Shown: positions 16,499 to 52,402, counted from the first letter of the stretch. The stretch: 64,000 nucleotides of DNA from Candidatus Uhrbacteria bacterium (GCA_016206085.1 JACQSF010000009.1:9412-73411); one strand, 5' to 3'. The notes: a model not told the origin generated them from the letters alone. Made by a program: numbers and translations.

Positions 16499-17380
16499 CT
16501 ATGCGAGGATCTGATCGATGAGTGCTTGGACGCGCACGAACACGTCCGTCCCGTGCTGAGGCTGCGATCCGGTGAGCCGGTCCCAGAGACGGAGAATACC
16601 ACCCAAGTGACGCACCAACCCACCCATGGTCTTGTCGGCACCCCAACTAGGCAAAGCTTGCTCGATCTTAGCACGAACATCCTCACCGGGCTTGAACAAG
16701 ATCCGTCGCTCGTCGGCGACCGCGATGTACGGGGACGCCCGCATGCGTTTCGGATCGAGCGTCCGTCCCGCGACCACGTAGGCGAAGGACATGTGCTCGT
16801 CGCAGCGCACGCGGAACTCCCGGTCGTACAGCCGTTCGTCGAAGCCAAGCTCCGACTCGCCCGCCTGGAGGAGCCAGCCGAGCTTCAGACGCACGCTGTG
16901 CGTCTCGCGGTACCAGAGCATGTCCGCGAGCTCGCGGCGCACGTACTCGGCCTTGTCGGTGTGCACGCGCGCGAGGAGCGCCTCGTACTCGTCCGAGCGG
17001 TCGAAGTCACTCGAGAGGCGGACGTCTACCGGGATGTCGGCGGCCCTCGCGATCTTGCCGATCACGTCCCGGTACTCCGCCGCCATGGCCGCGACCACTT
17101 CCGGCGTGCAGAAGGGGTTAGTCAGCGCGTGCGTGTCTGCGATGTGGTGGTAGATGCGGTCGAGCCCCATCAGCCTGCGAAGTCGCTCGGCTCCAAGGAT
17201 GAAGATGAGGATGTCAAACGGAAGCCCGATCGACGGCGAACGCGGGGTGGTCAGACCTGTCCCGTAGTAAACCGATCCGAAGGGTTTCGTGAGAAACGCC
17301 GGATCGATCATGGCGAGCGATGGTTCCGAGTGGAACAGGGGCTCGTTCTGCAAAAAAATCCTGAGTTGATCTTCAGTCAT
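16499..17380 (-). CDS. Hypothetical protein (293 aa) of the island operon
   Basis: Long GC-rich ORF, translationally coupled (ATGA) to the upstream GCS2 gene. No recognisable motif. Confidence 0.5.
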   Translation of the reverse strand: MTEDQLRIFLQNEPLFHSEPSLAMIDPAFLTKPFGSVYYGTGLTTPRSPSIGLPFDILIFILGAERLRRLMGLDRIYHHIADTHALTNPFCTPEVVAAMAAEYRDVIGKIARAADIPVDVRLSSDFDRSDEYEALLARVHTDKAEYVRRELADMLWYRETHSVRLKLGWLLQAGESELGFDERLYDREFRVRCDEHMSFAYVVAGRTLDPKRMRASPYIAVADERRILFKPGEDVRAKIEQALPSWGADKTMGGLVRHLGGILRLWDRLTGSQPQHGTDVFVRVQALIDQILA

Positions 17381-20084: not shown

Positions 20085-20249
20085 GTTGTTTTTCCTTTTC
20101 ATAAAAAACAAATTGTGAAAGAACGACAAAAAACGCTATCAATTTCCTCAAAAAGTGTCAACAAAGTAAATCGAGACCGCTGAAATATGCTCTCCATACC
20201 TGATTCGGAATGTTCCTCAATTTTTTTCTGATCGGTTGATACGGACATA

Positions 20250-34951: not shown

Positions 34952-35502
34952 GTGTCTACCTCCTTCACAAAAGTTAAGATGATGTCCTGGTACTTTACCG
35001 TCACGTTTTGGGTCGATCCAATCGCTTCTTCACGCTGAGTCGTAACCGTCACCAAAGCCGTGCCTGCCGTCTCATCTTCTTGTTGAACCTTCACGGTCAC
35101 AATGCTTGTGGTCACGCCATAGTATTCCTCGGGTGCCTTCTGGGTATCAACAATGTTTTGAAGCTGTGCGGCAAATGAGGCACTCGTCAGTGGAATCACG
35201 TCTGCAAGGTTGGCAAAATGTGCCTCATTTGAATAACTCCCATACCGTGTCACAAATGACTTAGAAAGGGAAACAACTTCCGCGGACGTCGTGCGCGTTT
35301 CCCGTTCTTCCTCCAACTCCTGCTCGGAAATTGTGGGTCGCGTCGGGAGAACCTCTTGTCCCTGCGGCGCCTGCACCACCTCTTCCACTTGCGGCTCCTC
35401 TTCGCCCCCAGAAAAAAGGATCCACAAAAACCAGATCAACAACAAGAAAAGAGCCAAGAGAATAAGGGCAATAATCGTCAATCGTTTTCTTCGAGTCATC
35501 AT
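34921..35502 (-). CDS. Hypothetical membrane-anchored protein
   Basis: N-terminal TM helix, acidic linker. ATGA-coupled to upstream virB4. Confidence 0.4.
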   Translation of the reverse strand: MMTRRKRLTIIALILLALFLLLIWFLWILFSGGEEEPQVEEVVQAPQGQEVLPTRPTISEQELEEERETRTTSAEVVSLSKSFVTRYGSYSNEAHFANLADVIPLTSASFAAQLQNIVDTQKAPEEYYGVTTSIVTVKVQQEDETAGTALVTVTTQREEAIGSTQNVTVKYQDIILTFVKEVDTWKVDSAIWQ

Positions 35503-37505: not shown

Positions 37506-37507
37506 AC

Positions 37508-38206
37508 CTATTTTTCAGAAACGAATGATGATTCTTCAAACTGTACCTGACGTATATCCACAAGCTTCTGTGTATCAAACACATTGGGATTATAGACCGT
37601 ATAATAGAGTTCAATGAGTCCTTGGGTATCCAAACGTGCGGAAGAAAGACCCATACTATTGAGTTGCCCTTGAGTGATTTCAAGTCGACGAGAGAGCTGT
37701 TCCATGCGATCCGCCAGCTGTTTCTTGTTCAGTTTAGCAGCCGCCGCTGGAGAAAGGGCTTCGGTGAATCTTGTCCAAAAATTTTTCTTCTTGTTTGTGA
37801 GCGGGTCGTATGGCACAACAAGATAAAACATTTTCTGCATGATCTGACCTAGCTCGACTAACTCCGTTACGAACGCCCGATAATCGAAAATCTGATTACG
37901 CAGAAGGTCATTTTCCACGACTCGTTCGCGTTCACGCAATCGATTCATATACGCATCAATATTCATGCGGCGTGACTGAATCACAATCTGGATGGGATAC
38001 GCCAGGGAATTCAGAAACGTCATGTAGGCCTGAATGATGGCTTCCTGTTCGTCCGCGGATTTAAGCGCGAAGTTAATGCTTGAAACCAAAAGCACGGCGC
38101 GCACCGTCCCGTCATTGAGAAGTACCATGTCATCACGAATCTCGGCGATGTCCAAAAATCGTTCCGTTGATGATCCTGGTTTTGGCTTGGCAAGTTTATG
38201 GGCCAT
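37508..38206 (-). CDS. Hypothetical protein in the T4SS-like operon
   Basis: ORF directly upstream of virB4. Start uncertain (MAHKL...). Confidence 0.4.
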   Translation of the reverse strand: MAHKLAKPKPGSSTERFLDIAEIRDDMVLLNDGTVRAVLLVSSINFALKSADEQEAIIQAYMTFLNSLAYPIQIVIQSRRMNIDAYMNRLRERERVVENDLLRNQIFDYRAFVTELVELGQIMQKMFYLVVPYDPLTNKKKNFWTRFTEALSPAAAAKLNKKQLADRMEQLSRRLEITQGQLNSMGLSSARLDTQGLIELYYTVYNPNVFDTQKLVDIRQVQFEESSFVSEK

Positions 38207-38639
38207 ACGATTCCTCGGGCTTGTACACACCGCCGGTATTCACGACGAGCGTCAATTCTTGCAAACGAGACGTGCCAGCAAAGGTTTTTCGGATATAGGG
38301 CGTGGAGGGTGATGGCAAAGAAGTTTTCATGAGCTCTTTGAGTTCCCTATCCGTATATTCTCGACTCCAGACCCGCAGTCGTGGCTTCTTCAATGTCTGG
38401 ATGAGATTCAAGAAAAAATAATGAAACGGAGCGCCGTTGATCCTCAGAAAGGCGACCGTTCCGCCCACCGCGAACAACGGAATCCCCAAAAGAAGAAACT
38501 GAACAAATGGGAGGAGTCGAAACAAGATGAACTCGACCAAAAAAACCACCATAAGAATAATAAACTGCCTCGCTGTGATGGGGCCGAAAATTTTGTCCTC
38601 TGCGTCGATGAATTGTGGCACTACGAATTGGTCGGGCAT
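38196..38639 (-). CDS. Small two-TM membrane protein (possibly VirB3/PrgI-like)
   Basis: Real start taken at MPDQFVVPQF... The first 27 residues of the listed ORF read through the palindromic repeat. Two hydrophobic helices. Confidence 0.4.
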   Translation of the reverse strand: MPDQFVVPQFIDAEDKIFGPITARQFIILMVVFLVEFILFRLLPFVQFLLLGIPLFAVGGTVAFLRINGAPFHYFFLNLIQTLKKPRLRVWSREYTDRELKELMKTSLPSPSTPYIRKTFAGTSRLQELTLVVNTGGVYKPEESYGP

Positions 38640-38720
38640 AAGCTCAGAGATGAGACTATACGGAAGAAAATTTCTTGGCCCGACTTTGCCAGCAAGAAAT
38701 TTTCTTCCGTATAGTCTCAT
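38640..38720. repeat. Intercistronic palindromic element, copy 2 (21-bp perfect arms flanking GGCCCGACTTTGCCAGC)
   Basis: ctatacggaagaaaatttctt-ggcccgactttgccagc-aagaaattttcttccgtatag. Same core as 8518-8590 with compensatory arm changes. Confidence 0.6.
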
Positions 38721-38732
38721 CTCTGTAGTGTA

Positions 38733-40043
38733 TCAGAAACGCAGGTCGGCGTTTAACTTCATCACCGCCTTGAGCTCTTCATCAGAAAGCGTTTCCTCTC
38801 CTGCTGTCCGTTTCTTCCCCAAAACCTCGGCCACCGGAATTCCCGTCAACACAGCCTCTCGCGTAATCCCGACGTACATTTGGTTCAACGGAGAACTTCG
38901 CCACGCCTGAACGGCTTCCACTTTCTTTTCATATCCCTGTTCTTCCATGAGATCGACTTTATCTTTCACCTTTGTCGCTGCCTGAGTCGGATCTTTGGAG
39001 AGACGATGGAAGTCTGTGAGCGTCAGCGACCGCAACTCATCAATAGGACCAGAGAGACGTTTTTCAAATGTGACTTCCTGCATGCTTGCAACCGTCTTGG
39101 GTCGTGGTTCCGTGCTCGTCTCTCGCGCGGCCATGACTGCATCCTTCACTTTGGAGGCATCGATTTTCCCCTCACGTGAGAGCTGTTCATGATGAGCCGA
39201 GATGGCCACGCTTGTGCGTGAGACAGATGGCGCAACGGGCGCGACATGTTCTCCCGGAACTTTTCCGGTGAGCTCGACGTAGCGCTTTGTGAGAAGTGTT
39301 TCTTCATTCTTTGCAAGTTCTCCCTTGTCTGGAATAGCCGCGAGCTTCTCAACCCTTTTGCGCTGTTCCTCTTGATTCACGTTCCCTTGAAAGGCCGAGA
39401 TGCGTCCCTCGATCATGGCCAGCATGTCTGAGAGTCGGCGACCTGTGACGCCCAATCCACCACTCTCGACAGCCTTTTCAAGCTGAGCCCGTGTCTGCTC
39501 CGGTGTACGGACATCACGTACTCGCGACTCGATGAGCTTCGCACAGCGTTCTTGTAACTGCGCGTCCTCAAACGTAAACATTGGGTTCGTACAGATTTCT
39601 TTGATGATTTCCGGGATGTCGAGTGGTCCCTTCGTCTCAAGAATGGAGGACTTCTCTTGAGCGATACTCGCCGCTTCGGCTTCTTCCTTTGAAAAATCTG
39701 GCTCAACGGAAATCCCTGGATTCCCTTTTAGCTCAAAAAGTGAAAACGGCAGATCATTCTGAAGCGGAGTCAGAACACGCTCGACAACCCCCCTTACGAT
39801 CTGCTTGGCAACATCCTGCGTCACGCGAAATTCGGATAGGATCACCCCAACAAAATCCTGAGGCTCAAGAACACGACTCACAAGGCGCATCACATAGAAC
39901 CCCAGAAGAGATTCATCCGCATCCTTCAAGCCAGCCTGAGACAAAATTTCACTGTATGTCTCATACGTGGATTCCTGCTGCAACGCAGCATCAACCCGTT
40001 CTTCTTGGGCTTGCTGTGGTGTGGATTGAGAAACCTCCGCCAT
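38733..40043 (-). CDS. Hypothetical soluble protein in the T4SS-like operon
   Basis: 436 aa, charged/helical, no TM segment. Confidence 0.4.
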   Translation of the reverse strand: MAEVSQSTPQQAQEERVDAALQQESTYETYSEILSQAGLKDADESLLGFYVMRLVSRVLEPQDFVGVILSEFRVTQDVAKQIVRGVVERVLTPLQNDLPFSLFELKGNPGISVEPDFSKEEAEAASIAQEKSSILETKGPLDIPEIIKEICTNPMFTFEDAQLQERCAKLIESRVRDVRTPEQTRAQLEKAVESGGLGVTGRRLSDMLAMIEGRISAFQGNVNQEEQRKRVEKLAAIPDKGELAKNEETLLTKRYVELTGKVPGEHVAPVAPSVSRTSVAISAHHEQLSREGKIDASKVKDAVMAARETSTEPRPKTVASMQEVTFEKRLSGPIDELRSLTLTDFHRLSKDPTQAATKVKDKVDLMEEQGYEKKVEAVQAWRSSPLNQMYVGITREAVLTGIPVAEVLGKKRTAGEETLSDEELKAVMKLNADLRF

Positions 40044-40046
40044 ACA

Positions 40047-42815
40047 CTATGTTGTTCGCTTGTTTCGCTCTTGTACCAATCGTACCCTTGTCTTTTCCAA
40101 TCGATCTGCCTGTTCCTGAAGTTCTTGGAGTCGTCGACTCTTTTCCTTCGCCGCCTCAAGGCCGGCTTTGCCACCAGCATCATCAATCATCTTCTTTACC
40201 TCGGCCTCAAGCGACGTAATATCTGGACTTCCCTTCATCTCTTCATCCCCTTCCTGTACGACCTTGTCATAGGATGCCTGGAACTTATCTAGTTCTTTTT
40301 GTGCACGAGCAATTTCATTCGCATTTCCTTTTTGTTGCGCAACGGCCAAATTCTTTCGTGCTCTTCGTAATGGCTGGTAGGCTTGCTTACGATCACCTTC
40401 AACAGACTGCTGGATTCTCTTACGAACATCCGCGATCTGCTTCTCTTTATCCGCAATCGTCTTTTCAACCCCTCTGAGTGCCTGAACCTCACCCTCAAGT
40501 GCGGCCACCGCTCCTTGGGCAGCGGTCTTCTCAGATTCGATCTGACTCATGGCTGCATCAATACGCTCACCACTGGACTGGCCGAAATTCTCATCGACAT
40601 AGGTATCAGCCCCTTGTCCGGCAGCTGGAGCTGGAGGCAAGCCAAAGCCTGCTTGTGTTTCCATCGCTGTTCGTGCCGTATCAAAGGCTGTAAGTGAATC
40701 AACAGCCGTCGCATTTCCACCCTTACCCATCTTGTCAGCCGCCGCACGCATACGATCCATCGAGAGCGCCATCTTTTGACGATCTTGGTCAGAAGTTCCA
40801 GCATCCGTGTATTTTGCACGCATCTGCGCGATGACCGCGTCTGCGCTGTCCCTATCATTCATTTGCAGAGCCGCTTCAAATTGTCCTTCCACCTGCGTTC
40901 CAATGTCGAGCTTCGTGACATCCGTTCCCTTCACAGCCGCCTGTTGTGCCTCTATCCCATAATGACCTGCGCGTGCGGCTTCCAGAGCGTTGAGATTCTT
41001 CCCGTCCTTATCCCTAAACGTCGTCCTGATACCAGCGGCACGCCCTTGAACAGCCGAGTCTTCCCAGGCTCCTGCGGCAAGAGCCTTTGTATCATCGGCA
41101 TCCTTAATCCTATCTGTCGAACCAGTAATGTGTGCGTATTTCTTTTTGAAGCTATCAAGCTCAGCCGTCTTGGCAACATTCCCGTTGGACATCTCTGTAT
41201 AGCCTTTTCCTTGAATCGCCCAAAGCTTCTTCATCGCCTCTGGATCTTTCCTCAAAAGATCTTTTTGGAGTCGGCCATCGGCCATCGTCTCTTCAAACAA
41301 TGCGGCCATCTTGTCCTTTCCGGCTTGCGTCTTAGGAGGACTCTTGAGCATGGCTTCAAGCTGACCCTGCTTCCAGTTGCGGTCTTTGTTTTTCATGGCC
41401 TCCTTCTCTTTGTTTACACCGTCAAACTTTGTCGCACGAATCCCTTGTTGAATATCCGCTTGTTTGCCTTTAAAAAAACGACCTATAGCGCCCTCACCCG
41501 CCATATCGGCAACTCGACCAGCCACCGCCGCCTTAGCTCGTGAAGGAATGTTCTGAAAGGCTGCAGGGGCTGGTGGGAGGTATCGAGAAGCTGCTGCAGC
41601 GGCTCCAGGTGTACCAGCAATAGCGCGACCACCAAGTCGTGCTACATATCCACCAGCTTTCAAACCCACGCCAGCCCCAAACCTCGCGACTTTCTCAGGA
41701 CTGAAGGCTTTTGCTGTTTCTAAACGCTTGCCAATAAATCCACCCGCTATTCCCGCGCTACAAAATTGCGATGCGGCCTTAAAACCCGCAAACAACATTC
41801 CCATGCCAATGAGAAAACTCAGAAAGTTGTTCACTTCCAACCAAGAAGCCGTAAAATCGGCATTGTTCGAATTCGCGCTTACGTCAAAGCCTGAATTGGC
41901 CGCAATGTTTCCCGCCCCGGCAACGGCAAGAGTGAGCCATAAGAAAAAAGTAAGAACCGGCCCGATGCCGACAAGACACTTAAACTCTTTCCACCAATCT
42001 TCATACGCATTGGAGTCAATAATGCCTTTGGCTCCCTTCATAAACCACGCCAGAGGGGCGATCACAACCAGCACCCACAACATGATAATGCGAAAGAGTA
42101 AAATCGAAACCAAAATAAGGAGTGTCGCAAAAACCCAAATAGTCAATAAAACAGACAGAACGGCTGAACCAAAAAAATCAAACGCTTGCGAAGCCCCTTG
42201 GGCATTCACCTGCTCAACCCCATCAATAACTGAGCTTGCTTGACTCACTTGATATATTTTATTCAAACCCAACAATTGAATAAAGTTTCCAGCCGCAATC
42301 TCGCGAAGTGCATTGGCGAACGTCAACATGATGACTTGCCCAAAATCAATCATGATGCCGCAAAGGGTTTTAGAAAAATTCACGACGATGGCCATGACCA
42401 GAAGTCTTGGAACTTGCTGCTGCCACTTAAACCGTTCACTTCCAAAAATCGTACCAAACGCGATGATGATCAAGATGACCACAAAAAACATATTCACCGT
42501 GTCGCGCACGATCGCCCACCCGGCTCTCACCACCGGGTTCCCGACAAAATTGTTGTAGGTCATGATCGGTACCATCACATCGATAAGCAAAACGATCCCT
42601 TGCGTAATGGCAGCCGCTATCGTGAAGGCAATGTAGGCAAAACTTTGAACAATACTCTCCACCCATAATGGAGCGGCGTGAACGGGAGTCGGATGCAACA
42701 GCAACGAAAAAACAAACACAATAATTCCAACACGGGCTCGTTTGGTTACGAGATTCTTCGTGCGACTCGAAAGCCACGATTTGAGCGCGAGCAATCGAAG
42801 GACAATCCAAGGCAT
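40047..42815 (-). CDS. VirB6/TrbL-like polytopic membrane protein with long C-terminal coiled-coil/charged region
   Basis: Signal/TM followed by 6-7 TM helices, then about 500 aa Ala/Lys/Glu-rich coiled-coil. Sits first in the operon with virB4. Confidence 0.5.
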   Translation of the reverse strand: MPWIVLRLLALKSWLSSRTKNLVTKRARVGIIVFVFSLLLHPTPVHAAPLWVESIVQSFAYIAFTIAAAITQGIVLLIDVMVPIMTYNNFVGNPVVRAGWAIVRDTVNMFFVVILIIIAFGTIFGSERFKWQQQVPRLLVMAIVVNFSKTLCGIMIDFGQVIMLTFANALREIAAGNFIQLLGLNKIYQVSQASSVIDGVEQVNAQGASQAFDFFGSAVLSVLLTIWVFATLLILVSILLFRIIMLWVLVVIAPLAWFMKGAKGIIDSNAYEDWWKEFKCLVGIGPVLTFFLWLTLAVAGAGNIAANSGFDVSANSNNADFTASWLEVNNFLSFLIGMGMLFAGFKAASQFCSAGIAGGFIGKRLETAKAFSPEKVARFGAGVGLKAGGYVARLGGRAIAGTPGAAAAASRYLPPAPAAFQNIPSRAKAAVAGRVADMAGEGAIGRFFKGKQADIQQGIRATKFDGVNKEKEAMKNKDRNWKQGQLEAMLKSPPKTQAGKDKMAALFEETMADGRLQKDLLRKDPEAMKKLWAIQGKGYTEMSNGNVAKTAELDSFKKKYAHITGSTDRIKDADDTKALAAGAWEDSAVQGRAAGIRTTFRDKDGKNLNALEAARAGHYGIEAQQAAVKGTDVTKLDIGTQVEGQFEAALQMNDRDSADAVIAQMRAKYTDAGTSDQDRQKMALSMDRMRAAADKMGKGGNATAVDSLTAFDTARTAMETQAGFGLPPAPAAGQGADTYVDENFGQSSGERIDAAMSQIESEKTAAQGAVAALEGEVQALRGVEKTIADKEKQIADVRKRIQQSVEGDRKQAYQPLRRARKNLAVAQQKGNANEIARAQKELDKFQASYDKVVQEGDEEMKGSPDITSLEAEVKKMIDDAGGKAGLEAAKEKSRRLQELQEQADRLEKTRVRLVQERNKRTT

Positions 42816-42962
42816 AACTGATGAAAGTATAGCATGAAAATGGCCTTCTGCCGCTGATAAATGGGGATAAGAAACTTTGAATTACGAAACAAGATCGCGA
42901 ATTTTATAATTCAAGATAAGAAAAACCCTCAACCGTATGTCAAGGGTCTGTATCGTGGTCGC

Positions 42963-44822
42963 CTAGTAGACGGCGCCCACCGAGATGCTGGTCGTGTTCC
43001 CAAACCACAGCAGTGCGCTGCAGCCCAGGTTCGTGTCGCTCTCGGATCCGGGACTCCAGGTCACGAGATCGTTCTCGTCCCAAGAGTTGCTGTCCAGGGT
43101 GATGTCCACCGCCACCCCGTACTCCAGGAAAGCACTACTGTAGTGGCCGTAGCAGTACCAGTCATCATACGTGCCATCGCCGTCGCTATCGACGTCGACG
43201 TTGAAGCGTACACCCAGAAGTCCTGAGTAGTCGCCTTCATCACTCCAGCTCACCTCGTCATCCTCGGTCACACTGGTTTCGACCAACCAGTAATCGCCCA
43301 GGCTCGAGATGGCATAGACGGGCTGAACCGTGAGCGTGAGCTCGGGGGAGTTGGCCGGATAGTCCACTTCGACCGTGAGTGTGCTCACGTCGCTGGTCTC
43401 TTCCTCTTCCTCCTGCTCGACTTCCTCCTCGGACTCCTCTTGCTCCTGCTCGACCTCGTCGGCGGGATCATCCTGCTCCTCATCGGGATCATCGTAGTCG
43501 TCTTGGTTCAAGTCTCCACCCTCACCAGGACCATCGCTGAGCTCCAGACCGCCTCCGCAGGTCGTGACCGCCTCGTAGTCCAAACACATCTGATCGGTTG
43601 TGCAGCTGCCGATCTGGTGGAGTTCTCCCACGATCCCGTCGTCAACCGTGAGGATGTCACGACGATAGTGATTCATGAGCAAGTAGACGTCCCAGGTCTT
43701 CACCGGGAGCGCAAACCCGCCGGAGATGATGTACACATCTGAGGCATCGGACTCCTTGACGATGGTGCCGTCGCGCATGCTGACATAGCTCGCGCTGGGC
43801 GGCCAGTTGGTCATGTAGGAGCTGGTGTCCCCGTACGTGTCAGGCTCGTTGCTCCTGTCGTAGGAAAGACCCCAGGAACTCAGAACGTCCTCCCAACCCG
43901 TCCCTCGCACTCGCGCGCGGTACCGGTTGGAGTCGCTTGCGGCGCCCACGATGAGCCAAAGCTCCTCCTCTGTGTCGAAGGCGGCATCGATGAACGTCTC
44001 GCCGACGATGTCCGACCCATCGCCGTAGCAATCAAGTTCCGACTCAGAGACAAGCGTGACGTCGTCGAAATCGTACTCGAGTCCCCAGAAGGTGGACTCG
44101 TTCTGGATCCATCGCGTCTTGCCGTCTTGAAGCACGTACACGCGCGCGTTGTCCGGGGTCATCACGAGCGCCCCGTCGGGGTGCCAGAGGTTGATCAAGA
44201 GATCGGACTTGTAGAAGTCACCGTCCTGGGGATCTCCCTGGCTGCGGATGCCGCAGGAGAACTCCTCCGAGGAGATTGTGGTCACCTCGGTTCCATCGCT
44301 CTGGTTCCCCGTCCAGTAGGTCGCGGGAATCGAGGTGCCGTTGTCAGCCGTGAGCGAAGCATCGCCTTGGTGCAGACCGATGTGCACATGCTCACCGGTG
44401 GCGTTTCCGGTCTTGCCTTCGTAGCCCAGGAGGCTTCCGACCGACACCTCGTCCCCATCGGAGATGAAGATGTCGGAGAGGTGTGCAATCACGACGTAGG
44501 TTCCGTCACCCAGATCGATGTTCACATGGTAGCCGAAACCCGAGGTCGCGGACTCCATGTGCACGTAGGCCACACCCGTGACCGACGCGAACACTTCCTC
44601 GTCGGCGTAGTCATTCGTGTCCAGATCGATGTCGTAGCGGGTCGAAATACCCGTGTGGCTGTGGGTGCCACCCGCGCCCTGGGTGCAGAGCTTCTCGGTA
44701 CCCGCGGAGAACGGGAGCTCGATCACGAGTCCAGCTCCGCCCTGATTGCTCTGGTTGGAACCATCGTACTGAGGAATGAACAGAGAACCGCAACCCGTGA
44801 GGGTGAAAAAGACGAGGGACAT
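42963..44822 (-). CDS. M23 (LytM) family metallopeptidase lipoprotein, high-GC codon usage
   Basis: Lipobox LTGC at the start MSLVFFTLTGCGSL. M23 motifs HTGISTRYDIDL and GEHVHIGLH. Long acidic C-terminal region. GC3-rich codons unlike the neighbouring genes. Confidence 0.75.
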   Translation of the reverse strand: MSLVFFTLTGCGSLFIPQYDGSNQSNQGGAGLVIELPFSAGTEKLCTQGAGGTHSHTGISTRYDIDLDTNDYADEEVFASVTGVAYVHMESATSGFGYHVNIDLGDGTYVVIAHLSDIFISDGDEVSVGSLLGYEGKTGNATGEHVHIGLHQGDASLTADNGTSIPATYWTGNQSDGTEVTTISSEEFSCGIRSQGDPQDGDFYKSDLLINLWHPDGALVMTPDNARVYVLQDGKTRWIQNESTFWGLEYDFDDVTLVSESELDCYGDGSDIVGETFIDAAFDTEEELWLIVGAASDSNRYRARVRGTGWEDVLSSWGLSYDRSNEPDTYGDTSSYMTNWPPSASYVSMRDGTIVKESDASDVYIISGGFALPVKTWDVYLLMNHYRRDILTVDDGIVGELHQIGSCTTDQMCLDYEAVTTCGGGLELSDGPGEGGDLNQDDYDDPDEEQDDPADEVEQEQEESEEEVEQEEEEETSDVSTLTVEVDYPANSPELTLTVQPVYAISSLGDYWLVETSVTEDDEVSWSDEGDYSGLLGVRFNVDVDSDGDGTYDDWYCYGHYSSAFLEYGVAVDITLDSNSWDENDLVTWSPGSESDTNLGCSALLWFGNTTSISVGAVY

Positions 44823-45090
44823 GACATGCTCCGTTGAGCTGGTCGTTGATGGGTTGGCGCCAGAATGGTGAACCTTCCCGGGCGACGCGCCAGATCTTGC
44901 GCGTCGACCCGTGCGGGTCAACCAAGCATGGTCATCACCCCACTTCCTGCCCCTCTCTCCAGGAACTTTTGTCTATTGATCGTCTAGTCCGACATGACCC
45001 CGGCGGGGTCTTTGGCAAACGGCTTCTGTTACGGGTGTCTGCCACAGGCCAGTCGAGAGAGTGATGTGGATGTCGATCTATCTTTACAAC

Positions 45091-45253: not shown

Positions 45254-46522
45254 TCATGTACGCTTCACGATTCGATCCTTGCCAACCCAAGGACGCAAAA
45301 TATCCGGAACCAACACACAACCATCTGCTTGTTGATAATTCTCCAAGATCGCGACAATCACACGACCGATCGCAAACGCCGTGCCATTGAGGGCATGAGC
45401 AAATTCATTTTTGCCTTCAAATCTCACTCGCGTATTAAGACGTCGTGTTTGAAAATCTGTTGTGTTGGAAGTAGAACTGGTCTCGCGATACGTTTTTTGA
45501 GACGGAATCCAGGTTTCGATATCGTACGTGCGCGCACTTGGCGCCCCCGTGTCCCCACTACACAGTTTCATCACTCGGTGAGGGAGTTTGAGTCCTTGCA
45601 TAAGACGCTCTTGAATCGAAAGGAAAAGATGGTGTTCCTCGTCTGATCTCTCCGGCGTTGTGAAACTAAACATCTCAATCTTATCAAACTGGTGCACGCG
45701 AATAATGCCATGTGTATCTTTCCCGTAGGATCCAGCCTCACGACGATAACAGGGCGAAAATCCGAGATATCGCAAAGGGATATTTTCTGCATCGATAATC
45801 TCGTCCATACGCATGGGTCCAATAGATTGTTCACTTGTCCCGATCAACACGAGGTCATCGTTTTTCAGATGGTAAATCTCTTCTTCCCCTCCATGTTCAA
45901 GGTACCCCATCGCGCTCATTGCCGCGGTTGAAATCATGTGCGGTGGGATAATGGGAACAAAACCTTCCCTGAGCGTCTCTTGAAACGCATACTGGATGAG
46001 CGCAAACTGCAGAAGAACGGCGTCCCCCTTGAGATAGGCAAAACGCGCTCCAGAAACTTTTGCCGCCCGATCCATGTCGATAAGATCCAAATCTATCCCA
46101 ATGGCAAGATGATCTTTTGGTTCAAAATCAAACGTTGTCGGTTCACCGAATGTCCGCAATAATTCATTTCCCGTCTCGTCTTTTCCAATCGGAACATCAG
46201 AACGCAAGATGTTTGGATACCGTTTGAGTTCTGTGAAAAGCTCGATCTCTACATGGGAAAGTTCTGCTTCCTTTTCTTTGACCTGCTCCTTAATCGTCTT
46301 TCCTTCTTCTACCAGGGCTTTGCGCTCAACAGGTGAGGAAACCGAGGGAATCTTGGCGGCAATTTCGTTTCCGCGGGTACGAAGGGTCTGCACAGATTCA
46401 ATCAACTCCACACGTTGGGCGTGCCACGCGATGGCCGCCTGTGGGTCCATAGATTTTCCCCGATTTTTATTGTTTTGCGCCACGCGCTCTGGTTCCTCCA
46501 AAAGACGTTTGATATCGATCAT
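45254..46522 (-). CDS. serS: Serine--tRNA ligase
   Basis: N-terminal coiled-coil arm and class-II catalytic core. Start taken at MIDIKRLL. Confidence 0.9.
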   Translation of the reverse strand: MIDIKRLLEEPERVAQNNKNRGKSMDPQAAIAWHAQRVELIESVQTLRTRGNEIAAKIPSVSSPVERKALVEEGKTIKEQVKEKEAELSHVEIELFTELKRYPNILRSDVPIGKDETGNELLRTFGEPTTFDFEPKDHLAIGIDLDLIDMDRAAKVSGARFAYLKGDAVLLQFALIQYAFQETLREGFVPIIPPHMISTAAMSAMGYLEHGGEEEIYHLKNDDLVLIGTSEQSIGPMRMDEIIDAENIPLRYLGFSPCYRREAGSYGKDTHGIIRVHQFDKIEMFSFTTPERSDEEHHLFLSIQERLMQGLKLPHRVMKLCSGDTGAPSARTYDIETWIPSQKTYRETSSTSNTTDFQTRRLNTRVRFEGKNEFAHALNGTAFAIGRVIVAILENYQQADGCVLVPDILRPWVGKDRIVKRT

Positions 46523-46584
46523 ACGTCGATCATCATGCCTCATTTTGCAAAAAAGAAGAAGACCCCCATTTGGGGATCTTCTTG

Positions 46585-46947
46585 TTAAAACCCAGATTCA
46601 CCAGCGATCATCCCACCAAGGAGGTCGTCGACCTCATCTGCAAGATCTTGGAGATCGGCTGTGGAGGATGAGGAACTTGCGTCTACAGAACTATTCACAT
46701 CGTATTGTGCTTCCACACCTTCTGTCTCTTGATTCTCATCGGACTCTGCTTGTGTCTCTTCCTCTTCCACTTCGTTTTCGTCCTCCTCTTCTTGGTCTGA
46801 CTGATTCGAACGGCCAGAACGGTCTTGTCGGGTCTCCCCAGAGATATCCGCATCGACGTCCGCCTGCGTTTGTGCGCAGCCAGCTCCTAACAAAATGAGT
46901 ACAGACAAGAGTGGAAGAATGAGGGTCGGGGTGTAACGATTACGCAT
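46585..46947 (-). CDS. Acidic lipoprotein
   Basis: Lipobox LLGAGC followed by an extremely Asp/Glu-rich body. Confidence 0.4.
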   Translation of the reverse strand: MRNRYTPTLILPLLSVLILLGAGCAQTQADVDADISGETRQDRSGRSNQSDQEEEDENEVEEEETQAESDENQETEGVEAQYDVNSSVDASSSSSTADLQDLADEVDDLLGGMIAGESGF

Positions 46948-46953
46948 AGAAAC

Positions 46954-47481
46954 TTAGGATGAAGTTTCTGTATTGAGGGAGGATTGGATCGCGTCGAAAA
47001 TGACTTCTACATGTGACTTGATCGATTGTCGAATCTCCTTGATCACCGCGATATTTTCTTTGACCGCCTCAAAGAGCGTTTTTGCGGTGGCGATCTGGTT
47101 GTCGTATTCCTCAATGGTCATCGTTGTACAATCAACCTGCGTCATAGCGGTTAAATTATCTTGAACAGCCTGGTGATCCGCAGCAAGATCTACAAGAGCG
47201 GATTCAAGGGCGGCGATATCTCCCTCCAGAGTGGAGGTATCTGCCCCGAGAGTTTGTGCTTTCTCAACAAATTTCTTGAGTTTCTCAATGGATTTATTCA
47301 TGCGTTCGATGTTTTTCGCGTGGCGAGTTTCGTTCGCCGTCAATCGTTCCTGTGAACGCGTGACCATGGCCTCACACTGAGCGCTCACATCGAAAGAACT
47401 TTTTGGCGTTTCTTGGGCAAACACTGCGGCAGAAGGGACGAGCATAGCTCCCACAACCGCCAGGATAAGAAATTTCTTCAT
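46954..47481 (-). CDS. Secreted coiled-coil protein
   Basis: Signal peptide MKKFLILAVVGAMLVPSAAVFA, helical heptad-rich body. Confidence 0.4.
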   Translation of the reverse strand: MKKFLILAVVGAMLVPSAAVFAQETPKSSFDVSAQCEAMVTRSQERLTANETRHAKNIERMNKSIEKLKKFVEKAQTLGADTSTLEGDIAALESALVDLAADHQAVQDNLTAMTQVDCTTMTIEEYDNQIATAKTLFEAVKENIAVIKEIRQSIKSHVEVIFDAIQSSLNTETSS

Positions 47482-47631
47482 AGAGAGAAATGTAAAGATT
47501 TATTTTCTGTTTTACAGTAACCGAACGTCTCAAAAAGGTAACAAGACTATATCCTTGGACAGAAAACTTCAGATTCTGAGAGGTTTTGATTCAAACTTAA
47601 CCATGGAAATAAGGAAGAGTCAATGGACTGT

Positions 47632-47675
47632 ATTTTCTTCAAGCAGGTCGGAAGCGAAGCTCCCGACAAATGAAG
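47632..47675. repeat. 44-nt direct repeat with internal hairpin (gtcggaagc-gaa-gcttccgac), copy 1
   Basis: attttcttcaagcRggtcggaagcgaagctYccgacaaatgaRg recurs at 50100-50143 with 3 mismatches. Both copies lie just 3' of minus-strand genes. Confidence 0.6.
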
Positions 47676-47691
47676 CCCTTGTCGGAAACTG

Positions 47692-48405
47692 TCACTTGAT
47701 CGTCCACGTCTTGGGAAGACTACATTGATACCGTTTCTTCAAATGCTGATAGATCTTTTTGACCAACTGCATTTGCTGACTAACCTCATGTGTCTGATAC
47801 ACAGCACGAACAGACCGAACGAATCCCGCATCGCGGTGACTCAGGACCTCAATAGTTTCATCGAATCGACGAAAATAGTCTCCATGTTTACGCAAAACAC
47901 ATTCGATGGCGTTGTTTATAAACAGCTGTAGGTTGCAGGCAAACAACAACCGATCGTCGTTTTTGGCACTTCTTTCAAGCTCTCCCAAAAAATCATGCAA
48001 GGAGTAAGCATGCATGAGATAGTCACTTTTGCTCGTACGAGTTTTCCCATTCAAATTTTGTTTCGCCAATCGTTGTAAGACACGCAACTGAGGCGTACGT
48101 TCAAAAATGATCTTTCCATTCGCCAGTATATGCGAGGTCGGACGACGTAATGCGTTTCGGTCTTGCTGTAAAAAAGCCGTTGCGGTTTCCACAGAGTCAA
48201 TGATTACATCGATCAATATCTCGCCAACAAAAAATCCTTTTCGTGTTACTGCTGTAGATGTGCGTGTCAGCACGTACACATCAACGTCAGAAAACTGATC
48301 TGCCTTCCCGTTCACCACCGAACCAAAAACCATAATACCAACAACATTCTGATCGCGACTAAAATGGGACAATAAACGATCTTCTATACTCTTCATGTTG
48401 ATCAT
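47692..48405 (-). CDS. Nucleotidyltransferase-domain protein (KNTase/ANT-like; possible aminoglycoside or lincosamide nucleotidyltransferase)
   Basis: N-terminal minimal NTase motif VFGSVVNGKADQFSDVDVYV (GS...D.D) and helical C-terminal domain. 237 aa. Confidence 0.5.
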   Translation of the reverse strand: MINMKSIEDRLLSHFSRDQNVVGIMVFGSVVNGKADQFSDVDVYVLTRTSTAVTRKGFFVGEILIDVIIDSVETATAFLQQDRNALRRPTSHILANGKIIFERTPQLRVLQRLAKQNLNGKTRTSKSDYLMHAYSLHDFLGELERSAKNDDRLLFACNLQLFINNAIECVLRKHGDYFRRFDETIEVLSHRDAGFVRSVRAVYQTHEVSQQMQLVKKIYQHLKKRYQCSLPKTWTIK

Positions 48406-48822
48406 AAAATAAAAACAGGAGCCGCACAGATGTGTTGAGTATACATCCGACGACCCCAGTCGTCACGTGCCGACCCTCAGCCTACATTCATTTATTTCTT
48501 GACAACTAATGTTTCTACTTTAAAAAAGAGCTGAGTCCTTTCACAAAGAGTAAGCATCAAATAATCCAACAGTTTTTCTCTCTCTGGGCAATGCTGAACG
48601 CCAGGCAGGCAACATCTCAAAGGCTCTCTTTTGGTACCAACAATACATCGATGAAAATGGTGAGGACTGGAATGTCTTGTCAAATATCGCCCTTGCAAAA
48701 TCGGATCAAACCGATATTGAGGGAGCAAGGTTAGCTGCAAAAAGCTTTGAAACTGTTCCCAACGACGGAACATCCGGAGATGAAAACGCTTCGAGAGTCG
48801 CTTGAGTCCATTGCTGGGAAAC

Positions 48823-48900
48823 CTATCCACATCTCACCCACAGGTTTAGTCAAAAATGGCTGATTTTGGCCTGTTTTTGAGGTCTGGGGGTTGACAAAAC
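48823..48900 (+). promoter_or_regulatory. Duplicated 78-nt upstream block (copy A) ending in TTGACAAAAC, with dyad CAAAAATGGCTNATTTTG
   Basis: About 85% identical to 51658-51734. Lies 50 nt upstream of the HExxH gene. AAGGAGG Shine-Dalgarno sits 5 nt before the ATG. Confidence 0.5.
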
Positions 48901-48951
48901 TTATTTTTTCTGAAACTATCGGTTGTCGCAACCTACAGCCAAGGAGGCACC

Positions 48952-49671
48952 ATGCGGCTCAATCAGACCCGATCCTTCACGCCAATGAATATGGTCATCA
49001 TGGCCGTAGTCGCCATTCTTCTGGGGATGGGAACCAAGACCTCTTCAGTTTCCGAAAGACCACTGGCTCCTGTCGTGAGCGAGCCACGTCCGAGGAACGC
49101 GCCGTCCGCACAGACGTCCCAACCCTCGCGTGGAGAGATCAAGGAATTCTTCCTCACCCATCCGCAGAAAGGGGTGCGTGATGACTTCCATCACTTGCTC
49201 ATCAGTGGGCAAATGTCATTCGTCTGGAATGCGGTCGGCACTCCGGTAGCCACATTCGGCTTGATCCAAGATGGGGATAGCGAGCCTGTTCTGGCACTGC
49301 TGGCGGATCCAGAGATCTTTCTGGAACGCAACCGCTCTCTCGCGCAGATCACCATCTACCACGAATACCTGCATTACCTGCAGTGGCGGGATGGAACCAT
49401 TCCCGAGTCCGCGTTCTACATTCGTGATTCCATGCCTCACGACGAGGTACACGACTGGTGCAAACAAAAATGGCACGCCGAGCGTCTGGCGTACCATGAA
49501 GCGTGCGCGTTCGGCCGAGAAGCCGGCCTGATAGGCGATCTGCGACCCGGAGGGCCGTTGTCAGTCGTCTGTACGGCTGATGAACCCCAGTTCATTCCGA
49601 TCCTGAAGCGTGTCCTCACGCTCGCGGATCCATCGGGCCCCATGTGTTCCCAGACGTGGAACACGATCTGA
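48952..49671 (+). CDS. Secreted/anchored HExxH protein (HEYLH), function unknown
   Basis: N-terminal hydrophobic segment, motif ITIYHEYLHYLQW, elevated G+C. Confidence 0.4.
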   Translation: MRLNQTRSFTPMNMVIMAVVAILLGMGTKTSSVSERPLAPVVSEPRPRNAPSAQTSQPSRGEIKEFFLTHPQKGVRDDFHHLLISGQMSFVWNAVGTPVATFGLIQDGDSEPVLALLADPEIFLERNRSLAQITIYHEYLHYLQWRDGTIPESAFYIRDSMPHDEVHDWCKQKWHAERLAYHEACAFGREAGLIGDLRPGGPLSVVCTADEPQFIPILKRVLTLADPSGPMCSQTWNTI

Positions 49672-49689
49672 CCAGACTGACCGACATTG

Positions 49690-49938
49690 TCAGTCTTTTT
49701 TGTTCCAGGATTCTACCGTGAGGGTTTCAGGCGGATGAAAGGCTAGATGCCTAGCCAGAATCCGTTCCCAAACTCCAGGCGGACAATCGAATTCGATGGA
49801 ACGGTAGGGCGAGCTGTCTTCGGCCTCACGGATGACACATCCATCCTCATTTGGGTGATCCCTTTCGATTGACTGATCGTTACAACCGTTCAGCAACGGA
49901 AGGACGATGAACGAAAGAACGTACAGGAACTGACGCAT
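49690..49938 (-). CDS. Small lipoprotein
   Basis: Lipobox LLNGC. 82 aa. Confidence 0.35.
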   Translation of the reverse strand: MRQFLYVLSFIVLPLLNGCNDQSIERDHPNEDGCVIREAEDSSPYRSIEFDCPPGVWERILARHLAFHPPETLTVESWNKKD

Positions 49939-50099
49939 GGGAACCTCGTTGGTAAGTTGTCCAAAAAAATAACCCCCAATCGTTATGATCTGGGGGATTA
50001 TTTTTCTACCTTCACTACATCAGAAATCTGAGCTCCCGTCAATGGTCATGTGTGGACAACTCACCTGAGATGCTCGAGTCGTCATCAGGCAAAAAGTGC

Positions 50100-50143
50100 A
50101 TTTTCTTCAAGCGGGTCGGAAGCGAAGCTTCCGACAAATGAGG
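50100..50143. repeat. 44-nt direct repeat with internal hairpin, copy 2
   Basis: See 47632-47675. Lies 7 nt 3' of the TPR gene stop. Confidence 0.6.
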
Positions 50144-50149
50144 AACTCT

Positions 50150-51019
50150 TTATCTCCTTGGATTTAATCCTGATGCGGGAAGATCTTGAACGATCTCCAT
50201 CATGGCCTTTTGAAATCGCCGTCCACCCTCACTACTCCGTTCCTTCCGTGGCTTAGACCTGAAAAGACGAAGAGCAACCTTCGCGTAATGACGGGCCTGT
50301 TTCTTGATTCCTCGAGCCACGTTTAGCTGGGCGAGATTGTAAACACACCCAAAGTCGGATGGGTCTCGTCGTCGCAATCGCTTAATAAGACATTCTGCTT
50401 CCTTAAATTTGCCCAACTGAAAATAGGCGTAGGCCAAAGAAAACTCAACTTTTGATCCCTTAGGATCAACCTGAAATGCTTTTCGATACCACTTGAGTGC
50501 ACGTGGATCCTTACGATTTATGAGAATACGACCTAACCCAATCATCGCCATCGTGCATTTTGGATTGAGTCGCAATGCCTGACGATACGCATGGCGTGCG
50601 GCGGCTTCCATTTCTTTTCGTATTTTCGGCCAGAGTGGATTCGCTAAATGATCATACATAAACCCAAGATAACACCACTTGAGCTCCTTTTCTTCTTTTG
50701 TCGCAGCTTTTATGTTCTTCAAGTTTCGTATCCCGCTTCTTGGATCCAAAGACCACGCTGCTTTGAGATATGCCTTAGACAATTGATCTGTTATAGACAT
50801 AGTTCCTAAAAAAATGCGCACCATGCAATGGTACGCTACAGGGTGAGAGAAGGCTACTTCATATGTTGTATCCCCAACGACCCGTTGACGGTGAAAGAAA
50901 AACCTGTTGTGATGGTTATGTAAGAACCCCTTCATTGCCTGCTTGTCGGGCTGGGGGTTGTTTTTGTTCGACTTAATCAGGAACATAAAGTTCACGATCG
51001 AAAACTTTATGTTCCACAC
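50150..51019 (-). CDS. TPR-repeat protein
   Basis: Multiple TPR-like 34-aa units (..AY..A..L.P....A...LG......). The true start is probably an internal Met, so the hairpin element at 50979-51014 would be intergenic. Confidence 0.55.
   Translation of the reverse strand: MWNIKFSIVNFMFLIKSNKNNPQPDKQAMKGFLHNHHNRFFFHRQRVVGDTTYEVAFSHPVAYHCMVRIFLGTMSITDQLSKAYLKAAWSLDPRSGIRNLKNIKAATKEEKELKWCYLGFMYDHLANPLWPKIRKEMEAAARHAYRQALRLNPKCTMAMIGLGRILINRKDPRALKWYRKAFQVDPKGSKVEFSLAYAYFQLGKFKEAECLIKRLRRRDPSDFGCVYNLAQLNVARGIKKQARHYAKVALRLFRSKPRKERSSEGGRRFQKAMMEIVQDLPASGLNPRR
50979..51014. repeat. Hairpin element ggaacataaaSttcacgatcg...tgttcc, copy 1 (13-bp perfect arms)
   Basis: ggaacataaagtt-cacgatcgaa-aactttatgttcc, 8 nt upstream of the 174-aa gene ATG. 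Related copy at 51538-51573. Confidence 0.55.
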
Positions 51020-51021
51020 CT

Positions 51022-51546
51022 ATGGCACAAAACCAAAAATCCAATAAGGTAACCCAAGAAATCATCGATACACTGGTCGAAGCTAGCGACCTTACTATCG
51101 AGTGGATGAACAACCCGTACAAACAATACAGACGGATTCGAGGAATCATGGAGCCGGAAGAGTGGGATCAAATCTTTCGAGAGAAAAAGAAACGTCGGGC
51201 TCTGAAAGAACTCAAACGCAAGAAATGGCTTACTGAGCGACGGGAAGGGAACCAAATCGTTTTTGAATTAGCAGAATCAGTCGCCATCCAACGTCTTAAA
51301 ACAATGATCCGATCAACGATTGCCGTCCTACCGGAACCATCGATTATTTTAGTAGCGTTTGATTTTCCTGAAGCGGCGAGAAAGGCCCGCGACTCGTTTC
51401 GATTTTTTCTGAAATCGGTCGGTTTCGGACAGAAACAGCTCAGCGTCTGGTTCTCCAACAAATCTATTCTTGATGAAATGCAGGCTCTGGTTCGTATACT
51501 CAAGATTGAAAAGTGGGTTAACATTTACCTCACGAGCGGAACATAA
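51022..51546 (+). CDS. Hypothetical small protein, possibly a wHTH-type regulator (PaaX-like)
   Basis: 174 aa, basic/helical N-terminal half, conserved-looking C-terminal SIILVAFDFPE...GFGQKQLSVWFS. No His residues, so not a HUH transposase. Confidence 0.3.
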   Translation: MAQNQKSNKVTQEIIDTLVEASDLTIEWMNNPYKQYRRIRGIMEPEEWDQIFREKKKRRALKELKRKKWLTERREGNQIVFELAESVAIQRLKTMIRSTIAVLPEPSIILVAFDFPEAARKARDSFRFFLKSVGFGQKQLSVWFSNKSILDEMQALVRILKIEKWVNIYLTSGT

Positions 51547-51573
51547 ACTTCACGATCGTGAAAAGATTGTTCC
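51538..51573. repeat. Hairpin element, copy 2 (contains the perfect 14-bp palindrome TTCACGATCGTGAA); overlaps the stop codon of the 174-aa gene
   Basis: ggaacataaacttcacgatcgtgaaaagattgttcc. Confidence 0.55.
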
Positions 51574-51657
51574 TTGGAAACTCTTGCTTTGGCGATGTTC
51601 AAGCGCGAAGATTCAAAAGTGAGCGTTCGATCTAAAGAACAGCGTTTCGGCCGAAAA

Positions 51658-51734
51658 CTATCCACATCTCACCCACAGATTTTGCCAAAAATGGCTAATT
51701 TTGTCTCATTTTTGAGGCAAAGGGGTTGACAAAA
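51658..51734 (+). promoter_or_regulatory. Duplicated 78-nt upstream block (copy B) ending in TTGACAAAAC
   Basis: Lies 41 nt upstream of the lipoprotein gene ATG (51776). Low-GC, unlike the gene it precedes. Confidence 0.5.
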
Positions 51735-51775
51735 CCCCAAAAATAGGATCAAATGTCAATAGATAGAGGTGAATT

Positions 51776-52402
51776 ATGTCCAGGTCCCTCCTGGTTTCTC
51801 TCCTGCCCCTCGCCTTCGTGGTGGGGTGCGGGAACAGCACCGGCGGCACCTGCGCCGGCGCCGAGTGCGACGCCACCGACGTCGACTCCGACTTCTCCGC
51901 GATGTTCCACAACGTCGCCCCCTACGGTTGGGTAGGTGACCACCTGGTGTGGCCGTACGACGAGAACTCGATGGGAATCGAGCCTCTGTGTTCCTCGGTC
52001 AACGAGTGCAACGCCGAACTCTCGGAGTTCGGGACCAGGATGGTCGACATCGACGGTGACACCTTCATGTGTGTCCCTCAGCTCCTCATCGTGGGCGAGG
52101 TCGACGACGGCACGACCGTCGACGCGACTTCTCCATGGCTAGGTGAGGGCATGTGTGGCCTCGCACCTGAGGGCGAAGACGATGGCTGGGAGGTACGTAC
52201 CGACATCCACGACCTCAACAGCGACGGGGATGACGAGGTGATCATTCACATCGCTTCCTGGACGGCGATCGTCACGGGCTCCGAATTCTTCTACGAGGAG
52301 GACGAGTACCTCCTCGAAGGCTGGATCTCGGAAGACCTCAGCCAGGTCTACTTCCACCGCGTCGTCGAGACAGGCGAGACAGAGCGGACACTCGACCTGT
52401 AG
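51776..52402 (+). CDS. Acidic lipoprotein, high-GC (GC3-rich) codon usage
   Basis: Lipobox LAFVVGCG, Asp/Glu-rich, Cys-containing. Strongly GC3-biased codons, unlike the flanks. Confidence 0.5.
   Translation: MSRSLLVSLLPLAFVVGCGNSTGGTCAGAECDATDVDSDFSAMFHNVAPYGWVGDHLVWPYDENSMGIEPLCSSVNECNAELSEFGTRMVDIDGDTFMCVPQLLIVGEVDDGTTVDATSPWLGEGMCGLAPEGEDDGWEVRTDIHDLNSDGDDEVIIHIASWTAIVTGSEFFYEEDEYLLEGWISEDLSQVYFHRVVETGETERTLDL

Follow-up and report, generated by a model that had tools for sequence, protein, structure and literature searches.

A reused block upstream of unrelated genes in Candidatus Uhrbacteria, probably a promoter cassette of a small local regulon

What is the role of a duplicated, AT-rich block that stands before two unrelated genes for secreted proteins in an uncultured groundwater bacterium of the candidate phyla radiation (CPR)? 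CPR bacteria encode few regulators and cannot be cultured, and to our knowledge almost nothing is known of gene regulation in their tiny genomes. The question arises from a stretch of 64,000 nucleotides (nt) of a Candidatus Uhrbacteria genome (GCA_016206085.1, JACQSF010000009.1:9412-73411), called the window throughout, in which an earlier note had described two similar 78-nt blocks, the first (block A) before a gene for a protein with an HExxH motif and the second (block B) before a gene for a lipoprotein. We consider it probable that blocks A and B are paralogues, two copies of a clade-specific cassette that joins an upstream factor site to a sigma-70-type promoter, and that this cassette marks a small local regulon. 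On our best reading the regulon consists of envelope and secreted proteins, expressed from the block promoters and from short-form promoters that carry the same 9-mer, Box 1. The cassette is conserved and reusable, yet it is an ordinary kind of regulatory DNA.

A repeat finder, followed by counting of identities over the 64-kb window, returned one two-copy direct-repeat family of 83 nt, with 70 of the 83 positions identical (84%); on the coordinates of the earlier note the count was 66 of 78 (85%), in agreement with its description. The 21-mer CTATCCACATCTCACCCACAG is the same in both blocks, and GGGGTTGACAAAAC forms the 3' end of each. A search with this 21-mer, allowing up to three mismatches, found no further match in the window and none in 100 shuffles. 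When the two-copy profile was run against the window with nhmmer, block A was recovered at E 4e-28 and block B at E 1e-26, while the next match had E >1; no further copy of the block was thus found in the window by either search. The similarity begins 5 nt to the left of CTATCC and stops directly after TTGACAAAAC, and the HExxH and lipoprotein products are unrelated (BLASTP E 0.086). The duplication therefore did not include coding sequence, and a larger duplicated segment containing genes, the alternative origin raised in the earlier note, is ruled out. The quasi-palindrome described there, CAAAAATGGCTNATTTTG, is present as a dyad, but it is merely 5-7 bp long and A/T-rich, and it is not retained as a palindrome in all relatives, being lost from L005, L007 and L013 in an alignment of 12 copies (L numbers denote contigs of relatives). 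A probable gene remnant, an open frame of 83 codons without a start (window 48560-48805, + strand), stops 13 nt short of block A; its TPR matches are weak and sub-threshold.

The block family was traced by scanning, with the profile, contigs that encode homologues of the downstream proteins. This yielded 13 homologous copies, spread over 10 contigs from a single Ca. Uhrbacteria clade and standing before five different genes, which bears out the view of the block as a portable, reused module. All contigs with a block are Ca. Uhrbacteria or groundwater assemblies. The exact 21-mer occurred once in 185,579 representative genomes, in another Uhrbacteria metagenome-assembled genome (MAG), and was absent from JGI metagenomes; a degenerate pattern matched one contig in the JGI metagenomes, carrying a further orthologue (L013), and had no match in viral contigs. 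The block lies at the same position before all eight lipoprotein orthologues (window B, L002b, L003, L004, L005, L007, L010 and L013), and more diverged copies precede a TPR gene (L006), a small open reading frame (ORF; L008) and a gene for a secreted protein of 93 amino acids (aa; L002a). No degenerate third block was found before the TPR gene of the window, the place that it occupies in L006. Identity among the blocks is 55-82%, similar to or above the DNA identity of coding sequences (mean 67%), and protein identity is ~50%.

These data bear on whether the repeat is a neutral leftover of a segmental duplication, or a mobile repeat resembling a miniature inverted-repeat transposable element (MITE), with no regulatory role. 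A distance of 2.8 kb separates the two copies, the locus shows visible rearrangement from genome to genome, and a MITE-like insertion lies nearby in L013, as might be expected from such an origin. We nevertheless regard it as very improbable, since the block has been kept before every lipoprotein orthologue in a motif-specific and indel-free manner while the proteins fell to ~50% identity, and its ends carry no terminal inverted repeats or target duplications. Moreover, all copies lie in one locus, with none elsewhere in the ~130 kb of the clade that were examined, the block had no match in phage, plasmid or viral collections, and its duplication carried no coding sequence.

The anatomy of the cassette was read from the alignment of 12 block copies. 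Box 1 (CTATCCACA) is followed in order by Box 2 (TTTTGTCAAAA), a variable stretch of fixed length, and the -35 element (TTGACAAAA). Box 1 is an asymmetric 9-mer, identical in 11 of the 12 copies and replaced by CTATCCCCA in L006, and a looser TCTCACCCACAG comes directly after it. The consensus of Box 2 is an inverted copy of the -35 region, with CTGA next to it. TTGTCA.AAA and TTGACAAA are near-invariant in the alignment; the 17 nt before the -35 element are only 48% identical among the copies. From Box 1 to -35 there are no indels in 11 of the 12 copies. Large indels occur in the 5' untranslated region (UTR) just downstream, where the window lacks ~85 nt found in orthologues and L007 has 28 extra. 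Both window copies end in the -35 hexamer TTGACA, supporting the earlier proposal of a promoter module, here the part upstream of the promoter. All six positions of the hexamer match in the two window copies, as they do in 10 of 12 members of the family. The candidate -10 hexamers are poorer: AACTAT in copy A agrees with TATAAT at three of six positions (including A2 and T6), and TCAAAT in copy B at four, lacking A2. Seventeen nt after the -35 hexamer, five lipoprotein orthologues have CCAAAT, L002 has TCAAAT, and L010 has a canonical TATACT. A sigma-54 promoter (TGGC...TTGC) was rejected, as the spacing is off by one and neither GG nor GC is conserved.

RNAalifold paired Box 2 with TTGACAAA. 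One of the eight pairs shows a compensatory change, in a single sequence, and the consensus fold, which is this Box 2/-35 pairing, amounts to only -2.5 kcal/mol with a positive, that is unfavourable, covariation term. Box 2 could be a second site for whatever reads TTGACAAAA. That the block encodes a small peptide, or a structured RNA such as a leader, small RNA or riboswitch, is scarcely credible. Single-sequence folds of the plus strand were somewhat stabler than those of shuffles (z -2.8 and -2.4), and an ORF crosses block B, where a gene caller annotated a 66-aa product in L004. However, copies A and B fold differently, over and above the weak consensus fold; the block had no match in Rfam even at E up to 1; it lies upstream of the predicted transcription start; and the frame of the small ORF is broken, with stop codons at differing positions in copy A, L002b and L010 and no ATG in several copies. 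The 5' UTR of the lipoprotein orthologues (~100 nt) contains two conserved hairpins with compensatory changes in 5 of 15 pairs (L002 7620-7735, L004 2652-2764, L005 687-801, L007 982-1123, L013 1576-1686). This leader had no match in Rfam, and is missing in the window (51755-51775).

Evidence for a regulon came from occurrences of Box 1 outside the blocks. Box 1-like 9-mers (YTRTCCMCA) stand exactly 8 nt upstream of TTGACG in simpler promoters, which we call short-form; these belong to a PaaX-like gene in six genomes, to the small82 gene in three, and to three further genes. Of 13 simple promoters, 12 have 8 nt between Box 1 and the -35 element, and of 10 blocks, 9 have 59 nt; the orientation is always the same, and the gap of 51 bp between the two distances is near five helical turns. 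In 128 kb there were 36 matches to the degenerate Box 1 pattern, compared to ~16 expected by chance. By our own count ~24 of the 36 are in promoter context, and the ~12 in coding sequence, also our count, are at chance level (~16 expected). The window contains five Box 1 promoters between 42.8 and 51.7 kb. Elsewhere between genes, a one-mismatch Box 1 occurs in the window only at 12745 and at 33997, the latter 11 nt before a tRNA gene, and no TTGAC[AG] follows either at a spacing of 8 or 59 nt. The suggestion that the block is a candidate regulon signature is therefore strengthened, as Box 1 recurs in other promoters of the same locus with constrained distance and orientation.

In the reading that we favour, a trans-acting factor would bind Box 1 in the cassette and would act on promoters with poor -10 hexamers (AACTAT, TCAAAT, TGTGAT), and the short-form promoters of neighbouring genes would use the same Box 1 at 8 bp from -35. 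The repeat, its family, the pattern of conservation, the fixed spacings and the graft junction described below are shown by the sequences, whereas we infer where transcription starts, that a factor binds, that it activates rather than represses, and which protein it might be.

Two observations concern the genes behind Box 1 promoters. A GC-rich hairpin with a T-run, for example AATAATCCCCCAGATCATAACGATTGGGGGTTATTTTTTT, lies ~10-25 nt from the predicted start of short-form promoters (window 49960-50000 on the - strand and 50925-50965 on the + strand; L002 6180-6235; L006 near 2040-2080, - strand). Its terminator-like form in the 5' leader of the small82, PaaX-like and orf93 genes suggests attenuation or protection of the 5' end. 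A 922-aa orphan, whose promoter contains the Box 1-like TTATCCCCA, heads a type IV secretion-like operon; the set (window 35499-42815, - strand, and 28510-29784, + strand) includes a PrgI-like protein, a VirB4/TraG-like ATPase, a type IV secretion system (T4SS) pilin and an NlpC/P60 protein.

Several points weigh against the proposed regulon. A simple promoter scan called neither of the window sites, the -10 hexamer being weak in each. Shared ancestry, and not constraint, could account for much of the fixed spacing between Box 1 and -35, and the size of the regulon is gauged from the same ~130 kb of the clade. Finally, the reverse strand of Box 1 and Box 2 reads TTGACA, exactly 17 nt, and GTGGAT, with TTGACA matching at 5-6 of six positions in 9 of 12 copies and GTGGAT invariant. 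The block may then hold back-to-back divergent promoters, with reverse-strand Box 2 (TTGACAAAAC) as the -35 and reverse-strand Box 1 (GTGGATAG) as the -10 element, and transcription to the left would express a divergent gene upstream or yield an antisense or non-coding RNA. In L005 and L007 the spacer varies, as expected of a promoter, a similar non-canonical -10 (TGTGAT) is used by other promoters of the clade, and a divergent gene lies to the left in L004, L005, L006, L002b and L003. We consider this arrangement quite unlikely, as GTGGAT lacks the essential A at position 2 and agrees with TATAAT at two of six positions, and a leftward transcript would run antisense to a co-directional gene in 5 of 12 copies (the PaaX-like gene in three, L007 and L010). 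Box 1 is, besides, equally conserved in the 13 short-form promoters; no reverse -35 is present there, so its conservation in them needs another explanation.

The resemblance of Box 1 to a DnaA box offers a different account, in which the genes would be controlled by DnaA acting as a transcription factor. CTATCCACA agrees with the classical DnaA box TTATCCACA at eight of nine positions, and is asymmetric and 9 bp long, as expected for a site bound by a monomer; TTGTCCACA, the variant in the small82 promoter, is what we take to be the actinobacterial DnaA box. Compared to TTWTNCACA, the Box 1 of the blocks again scores eight of nine, and the short forms include TTGTCCACA but also TTATCCCCA, CTATCCCCA and TTATCCACC. 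About half of the short-form boxes are TATCCCCA, which alters the conserved A of the DnaA consensus, and one-mismatch DnaA boxes are barely enriched in the window (15, compared to 10 +/- 3 expected). The scanned genes of the window include no dnaA, there is no origin signal, GC skew is monotonic, and the target genes encode envelope and secreted proteins rather than replication functions. Control by DnaA is thus decidedly unlikely.

A candidate for the factor lies next to the lipoprotein gene. The PaaX-like protein is the only putative DNA-binding regulator among the Pfam-scanned genes of the 64-kb window, and could bind the block, at the dyad or at Box 1, to repress or activate both genes. 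In the window, L002 and L013 its gene immediately precedes the lipoprotein block, and the Box 1 in its own promoter in six genomes is consistent with autoregulation. Nonetheless, we judge this possibility to be unlikely. The dyad, which the earlier note had proposed as a site for a nearby protein resembling a winged helix-turn-helix, is a weak candidate, as it is not conserved as a palindrome; moreover, neither a PaaX-like gene nor its palindrome (described below) occurs in the recovered flanks of 5 of the 13 block copies (L004, L005, L006, L007 and L010). Foldseek matched the protein to the Cas2 fold and to PaaX 8a39, using a low-confidence model (pLDDT, the predicted local distance difference test, of 67) in which only the Cas2-like half has any confidence, and DNA binding by the N-terminal region is therefore putative.

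The PaaX-like gene is also flanked by a much stronger palindrome of 36 nt, with the core CGATCG; in every PaaX-like gene one copy stands 6 nt ahead of the start codon and a second covers the stop codon. The arms of the palindrome co-vary between lineages with the protein (GGAACATAA... in one, GACCTAACTT... in the other), and judging by sequence it is a likelier candidate operator of the PaaX-like protein than the block dyad. Copies lie in L002 (5484, 6042, 7411), L003 (1018), L008 (1245), L011 (9959, 10517), L012 (5837), L013 (694, 1252) and L014 (967); in L003 and L002a the palindrome abuts the block directly. The Cas2-like neighbour raised the possibility of a CRISPR repeat, which was rejected, as the copies are 557-1369 nt apart and form no array. 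A defence system was likewise rejected: apart from the Cas2-like domain, PADLOC gave only weak matches at sub-family level, for the nucleotidyltransferase and coiled-coil genes. We found no paper on promoters or regulons of Uhrbacteria, or on PaaX/Cas2-like regulators. In L002, two identical palindromes flank an inserted cassette composed of orf93 and a second HExxH-like gene. Between palindrome and block, L013 (1290-1405) carries an insertion of ~110 nt with a duplicated ATTGTTCC and the terminal inverted repeats GTAAATCCTGTGGAG and CTCCACAGGATTTAC; it resembles a miniature transposable element.

Comparison with orthologues indicated how the two copies in the window arose. Copy B is the ancestral control region of the lipoprotein gene, because the block is found at the same place in all lipoprotein orthologues and the gene is syntenic with a giant gene of 3,300 aa, on which it converges wherever the contig reaches (window, L003, L004 and L005). 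The HExxH gene, in contrast, has a block in the window only, and its orthologues in L006, L009, L012 and L014 have none. Their native promoter consists of GGTTGACG/A, 17 nt, and then TATCGT, TAATAT or TATTGT, and the window agrees with these orthologues only from the -35 element on, the sequence farther upstream being unrelated. Among all copies, block A is most like block B (84%), and it falls with the blocks of the lipoprotein type. It follows that copy A is such a block, brought into the HExxH promoter, in this lineage only, by recombination at the GGTTGAC that both have, and the locus documents a clean replacement of a promoter by recombination at -35. The graft would have placed the HExxH gene under upstream control common with the lipoprotein gene.

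The composition of the downstream genes led the earlier note to suggest that the module may drive acquired genes. The G+C content is as it described: 45% and 39% in blocks A and B, 57.5% in the HExxH gene (G+C at third codon positions, GC3, 0.67) and 62.5% in the lipoprotein gene (GC3 0.84), compared to 52% for the window. The two proteins, HY626_01710 (HExxH, a hypothetical protein of Ca. Uhrbacteria) and HY626_01725, are both orphans, with six homologous clusters each among 5.8 billion, all from Candidatus Uhrbacteria MAGs or groundwater assemblies, and the HExxH protein had no match in Pfam or NCBIfam. The link to acquisition was not supported. GC3 is 0.84-0.91 in six full-length lipoprotein orthologues whose proteins are only ~50% identical, compared to 0.46-0.60 in neighbouring genes. 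An M23 peptidase gene (window 42963-44921) has GC3 of 0.74-0.81 across three genomes, and a GC-rich stretch of 9 kb (window 11400-20100, 60-66% GC) encodes housekeeping proteins such as the YchF GTPase and the Tyr/Trp-tRNA synthetase; both are without a block, and the low-GC TPR gene of L006 has one. Recent horizontal transfer of the GC-rich genes was rejected, since their composition is atypical but synteny and conserved GC3 speak against it. Because syntenic orthologues keep it, GC-rich genes occur without the block and a low-GC gene occurs with it, high GC3 is a stable property of these genes and not a mark of recent transfer tied to the block.

Table 1. Positions of the cassette elements, promoters, palindromes and genes in the window
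Feature	Position	Strand	Basis or remark
Block A, 83-nt upstream cassette	48818..48900	+	Repeat families D3/D1; nhmmer E 4e-28; 84% to block B
Box 1 of block A, CTATCCACA, then TCTCACCCACAG to 48843	48823..48831	+	59 nt upstream of -35
Box 2 of block A, TTTAGTCAAAA	48845..48855	+	Near-invariant columns; RNAalifold pairing with TTGACAAA
-35 TTGACA of block A	48891..48896	+	Aligns with -35 of native HExxH promoters in orthologues
Candidate -10 AACTAT, block A	48914-48919	+	17-nt spacer
Shine-Dalgarno AAGGAGG, HExxH gene	48940-48946	+	Sequence
HExxH protein gene, 239 aa, N-terminal membrane anchor, HEYLH	48952..49671	+	ORF; block A upstream
Block B, lipoprotein upstream cassette	51653..51735	+	Orthologous blocks before 8/8 lipoprotein orthologues
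Box 1 of block B, CTATCCACA	51658..51666	+	Alignment, spacing
Box 2 of block B, TTTTGCCAAAA	51680..51690	+	Alignment, RNAalifold
-35 TTGACA of block B	51726..51731	+	Sequence
Candidate -10 TCAAAT, block B	51749-51754	+	17-nt spacer
Lipoprotein gene, 208 aa, lipobox VVGC, GC3 0.84	51776..52402	+	ORF; block B upstream
Short-form promoter, PaaX-like gene: GTATCCCCA, 8 nt, TTGACG, 17 nt, TGTGAT	50868..50913	+	Kept in L002, L011, L012, L013, L014
Short-form promoter, small82 gene: TTGTCCACA, 8 nt, TTGACG, 17 nt, TGTAGT	50014..50059	-	Same architecture in L006, L008
Box 1-like TTATCCCCA, 30 nt upstream of extended -10 TGCTATACT, before 922-aa gene	42862..42870	-	Conserved in L011
PaaX-like gene, N-terminal helical region and Cas2-like domain	51022..51546	+	PF20803 E 4e-13; Cas2, PaaX, VapD matches
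Palindrome P1, GGAACATAAAGTTCACGATCGAAAACTTTATGTTCC, 6 nt before PaaX-like start codon	50980..51015	.	Repeat finder
Palindrome P2, overlaps PaaX-like stop codon, 79 nt upstream of block B	51538..51573	.	Repeat finder

Around these features, the genes that lie between those for seryl-tRNA synthetase and the PaaX-like protein differ completely across related genomes (window 45254-51019, L011 6521-9780, L012 3864-5630): one genome has nucleotidyltransferase, HExxH, small82 and TPR genes, another a protein kinase and two orphans, and a third other orphans. This stretch is a variable island within conserved synteny. A 45-nt element, 93% identical between its two copies in the window (47629-47673 and 50097-50141) and also present in L008 near 1195-1240, lies just past the stop codons of the nucleotidyltransferase and TPR genes. 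It contains the hairpin GTCGGAAGC-GAA-GCTTCCGAC with conserved flanks and looks like a shared module of 3' ends.

A bolder reading can be offered tentatively. In it, a single factor would recognise an asymmetric 9-mer similar to a DnaA box from either of two quantised distances (8 or 59 bp to -35), the variable cluster of surface proteins would be co-ordinated as the first recognisable transcriptional regulon in a CPR lineage, and promoter cassettes, leader terminators and palindromes would be shuffled between genes as modules. If true, the single-factor regulon would span the lipoprotein, the HExxH protease, small secreted proteins and the type IV secretion-like operon. The orphan surface proteins behind the cassette likely matter for attachment to host cells, and the locus provides a concrete entry point to CPR regulation, in the form of a single 9-bp motif, a few target genes and one candidate regulator next to them.

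Known systems resemble the locus in different parts. The 174-aa PaaX-like protein has the central Cas2-like domain of PaaX, the regulator of the phenylacetate regulon of Escherichia coli, and its gene is bracketed by palindromes; unlike PaaX, it is about half as long and without the C-terminal domain, no paa genes are present, and what we take to be the PaaX operator resembles neither the palindrome nor the block. As with a DnaA box used as a transcription-factor site, the 9-bp, asymmetric Box 1 (TTATCCACA at eight of nine positions) is placed beside or upstream of -35, but many copies have CCCCA in place of CCACA, the targets are surface-protein genes, and there is no origin context. The copying of a promoter-bearing segment before an unrelated gene, with its junction at the short shared GGTTGAC, is similar to promoter capture or swapping by recombination, as in mobile promoters and the cassette promoters of variable surface-protein loci, and here too the content between the seryl-tRNA synthetase gene and the giant gene differs across genomes; in contrast to these systems, the block is associated with no transposase, integrase or integron attC-like structure, and only one transfer, to the HExxH gene, is documented. 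At CRP-dependent class I promoters, the factor site works from several helically phased distances. Box 1 differs from such sites in being an asymmetric 9-mer and not a palindrome. Nevertheless, the cassette shares with these activator-dependent sigma-70 promoters a consensus -35, a 17-nt spacer and weak candidate -10 hexamers. It also shares with them a conserved upstream site whose orientation is fixed, whose distance is either 8 or 59 bp, and which is common to several promoters of functionally related genes.

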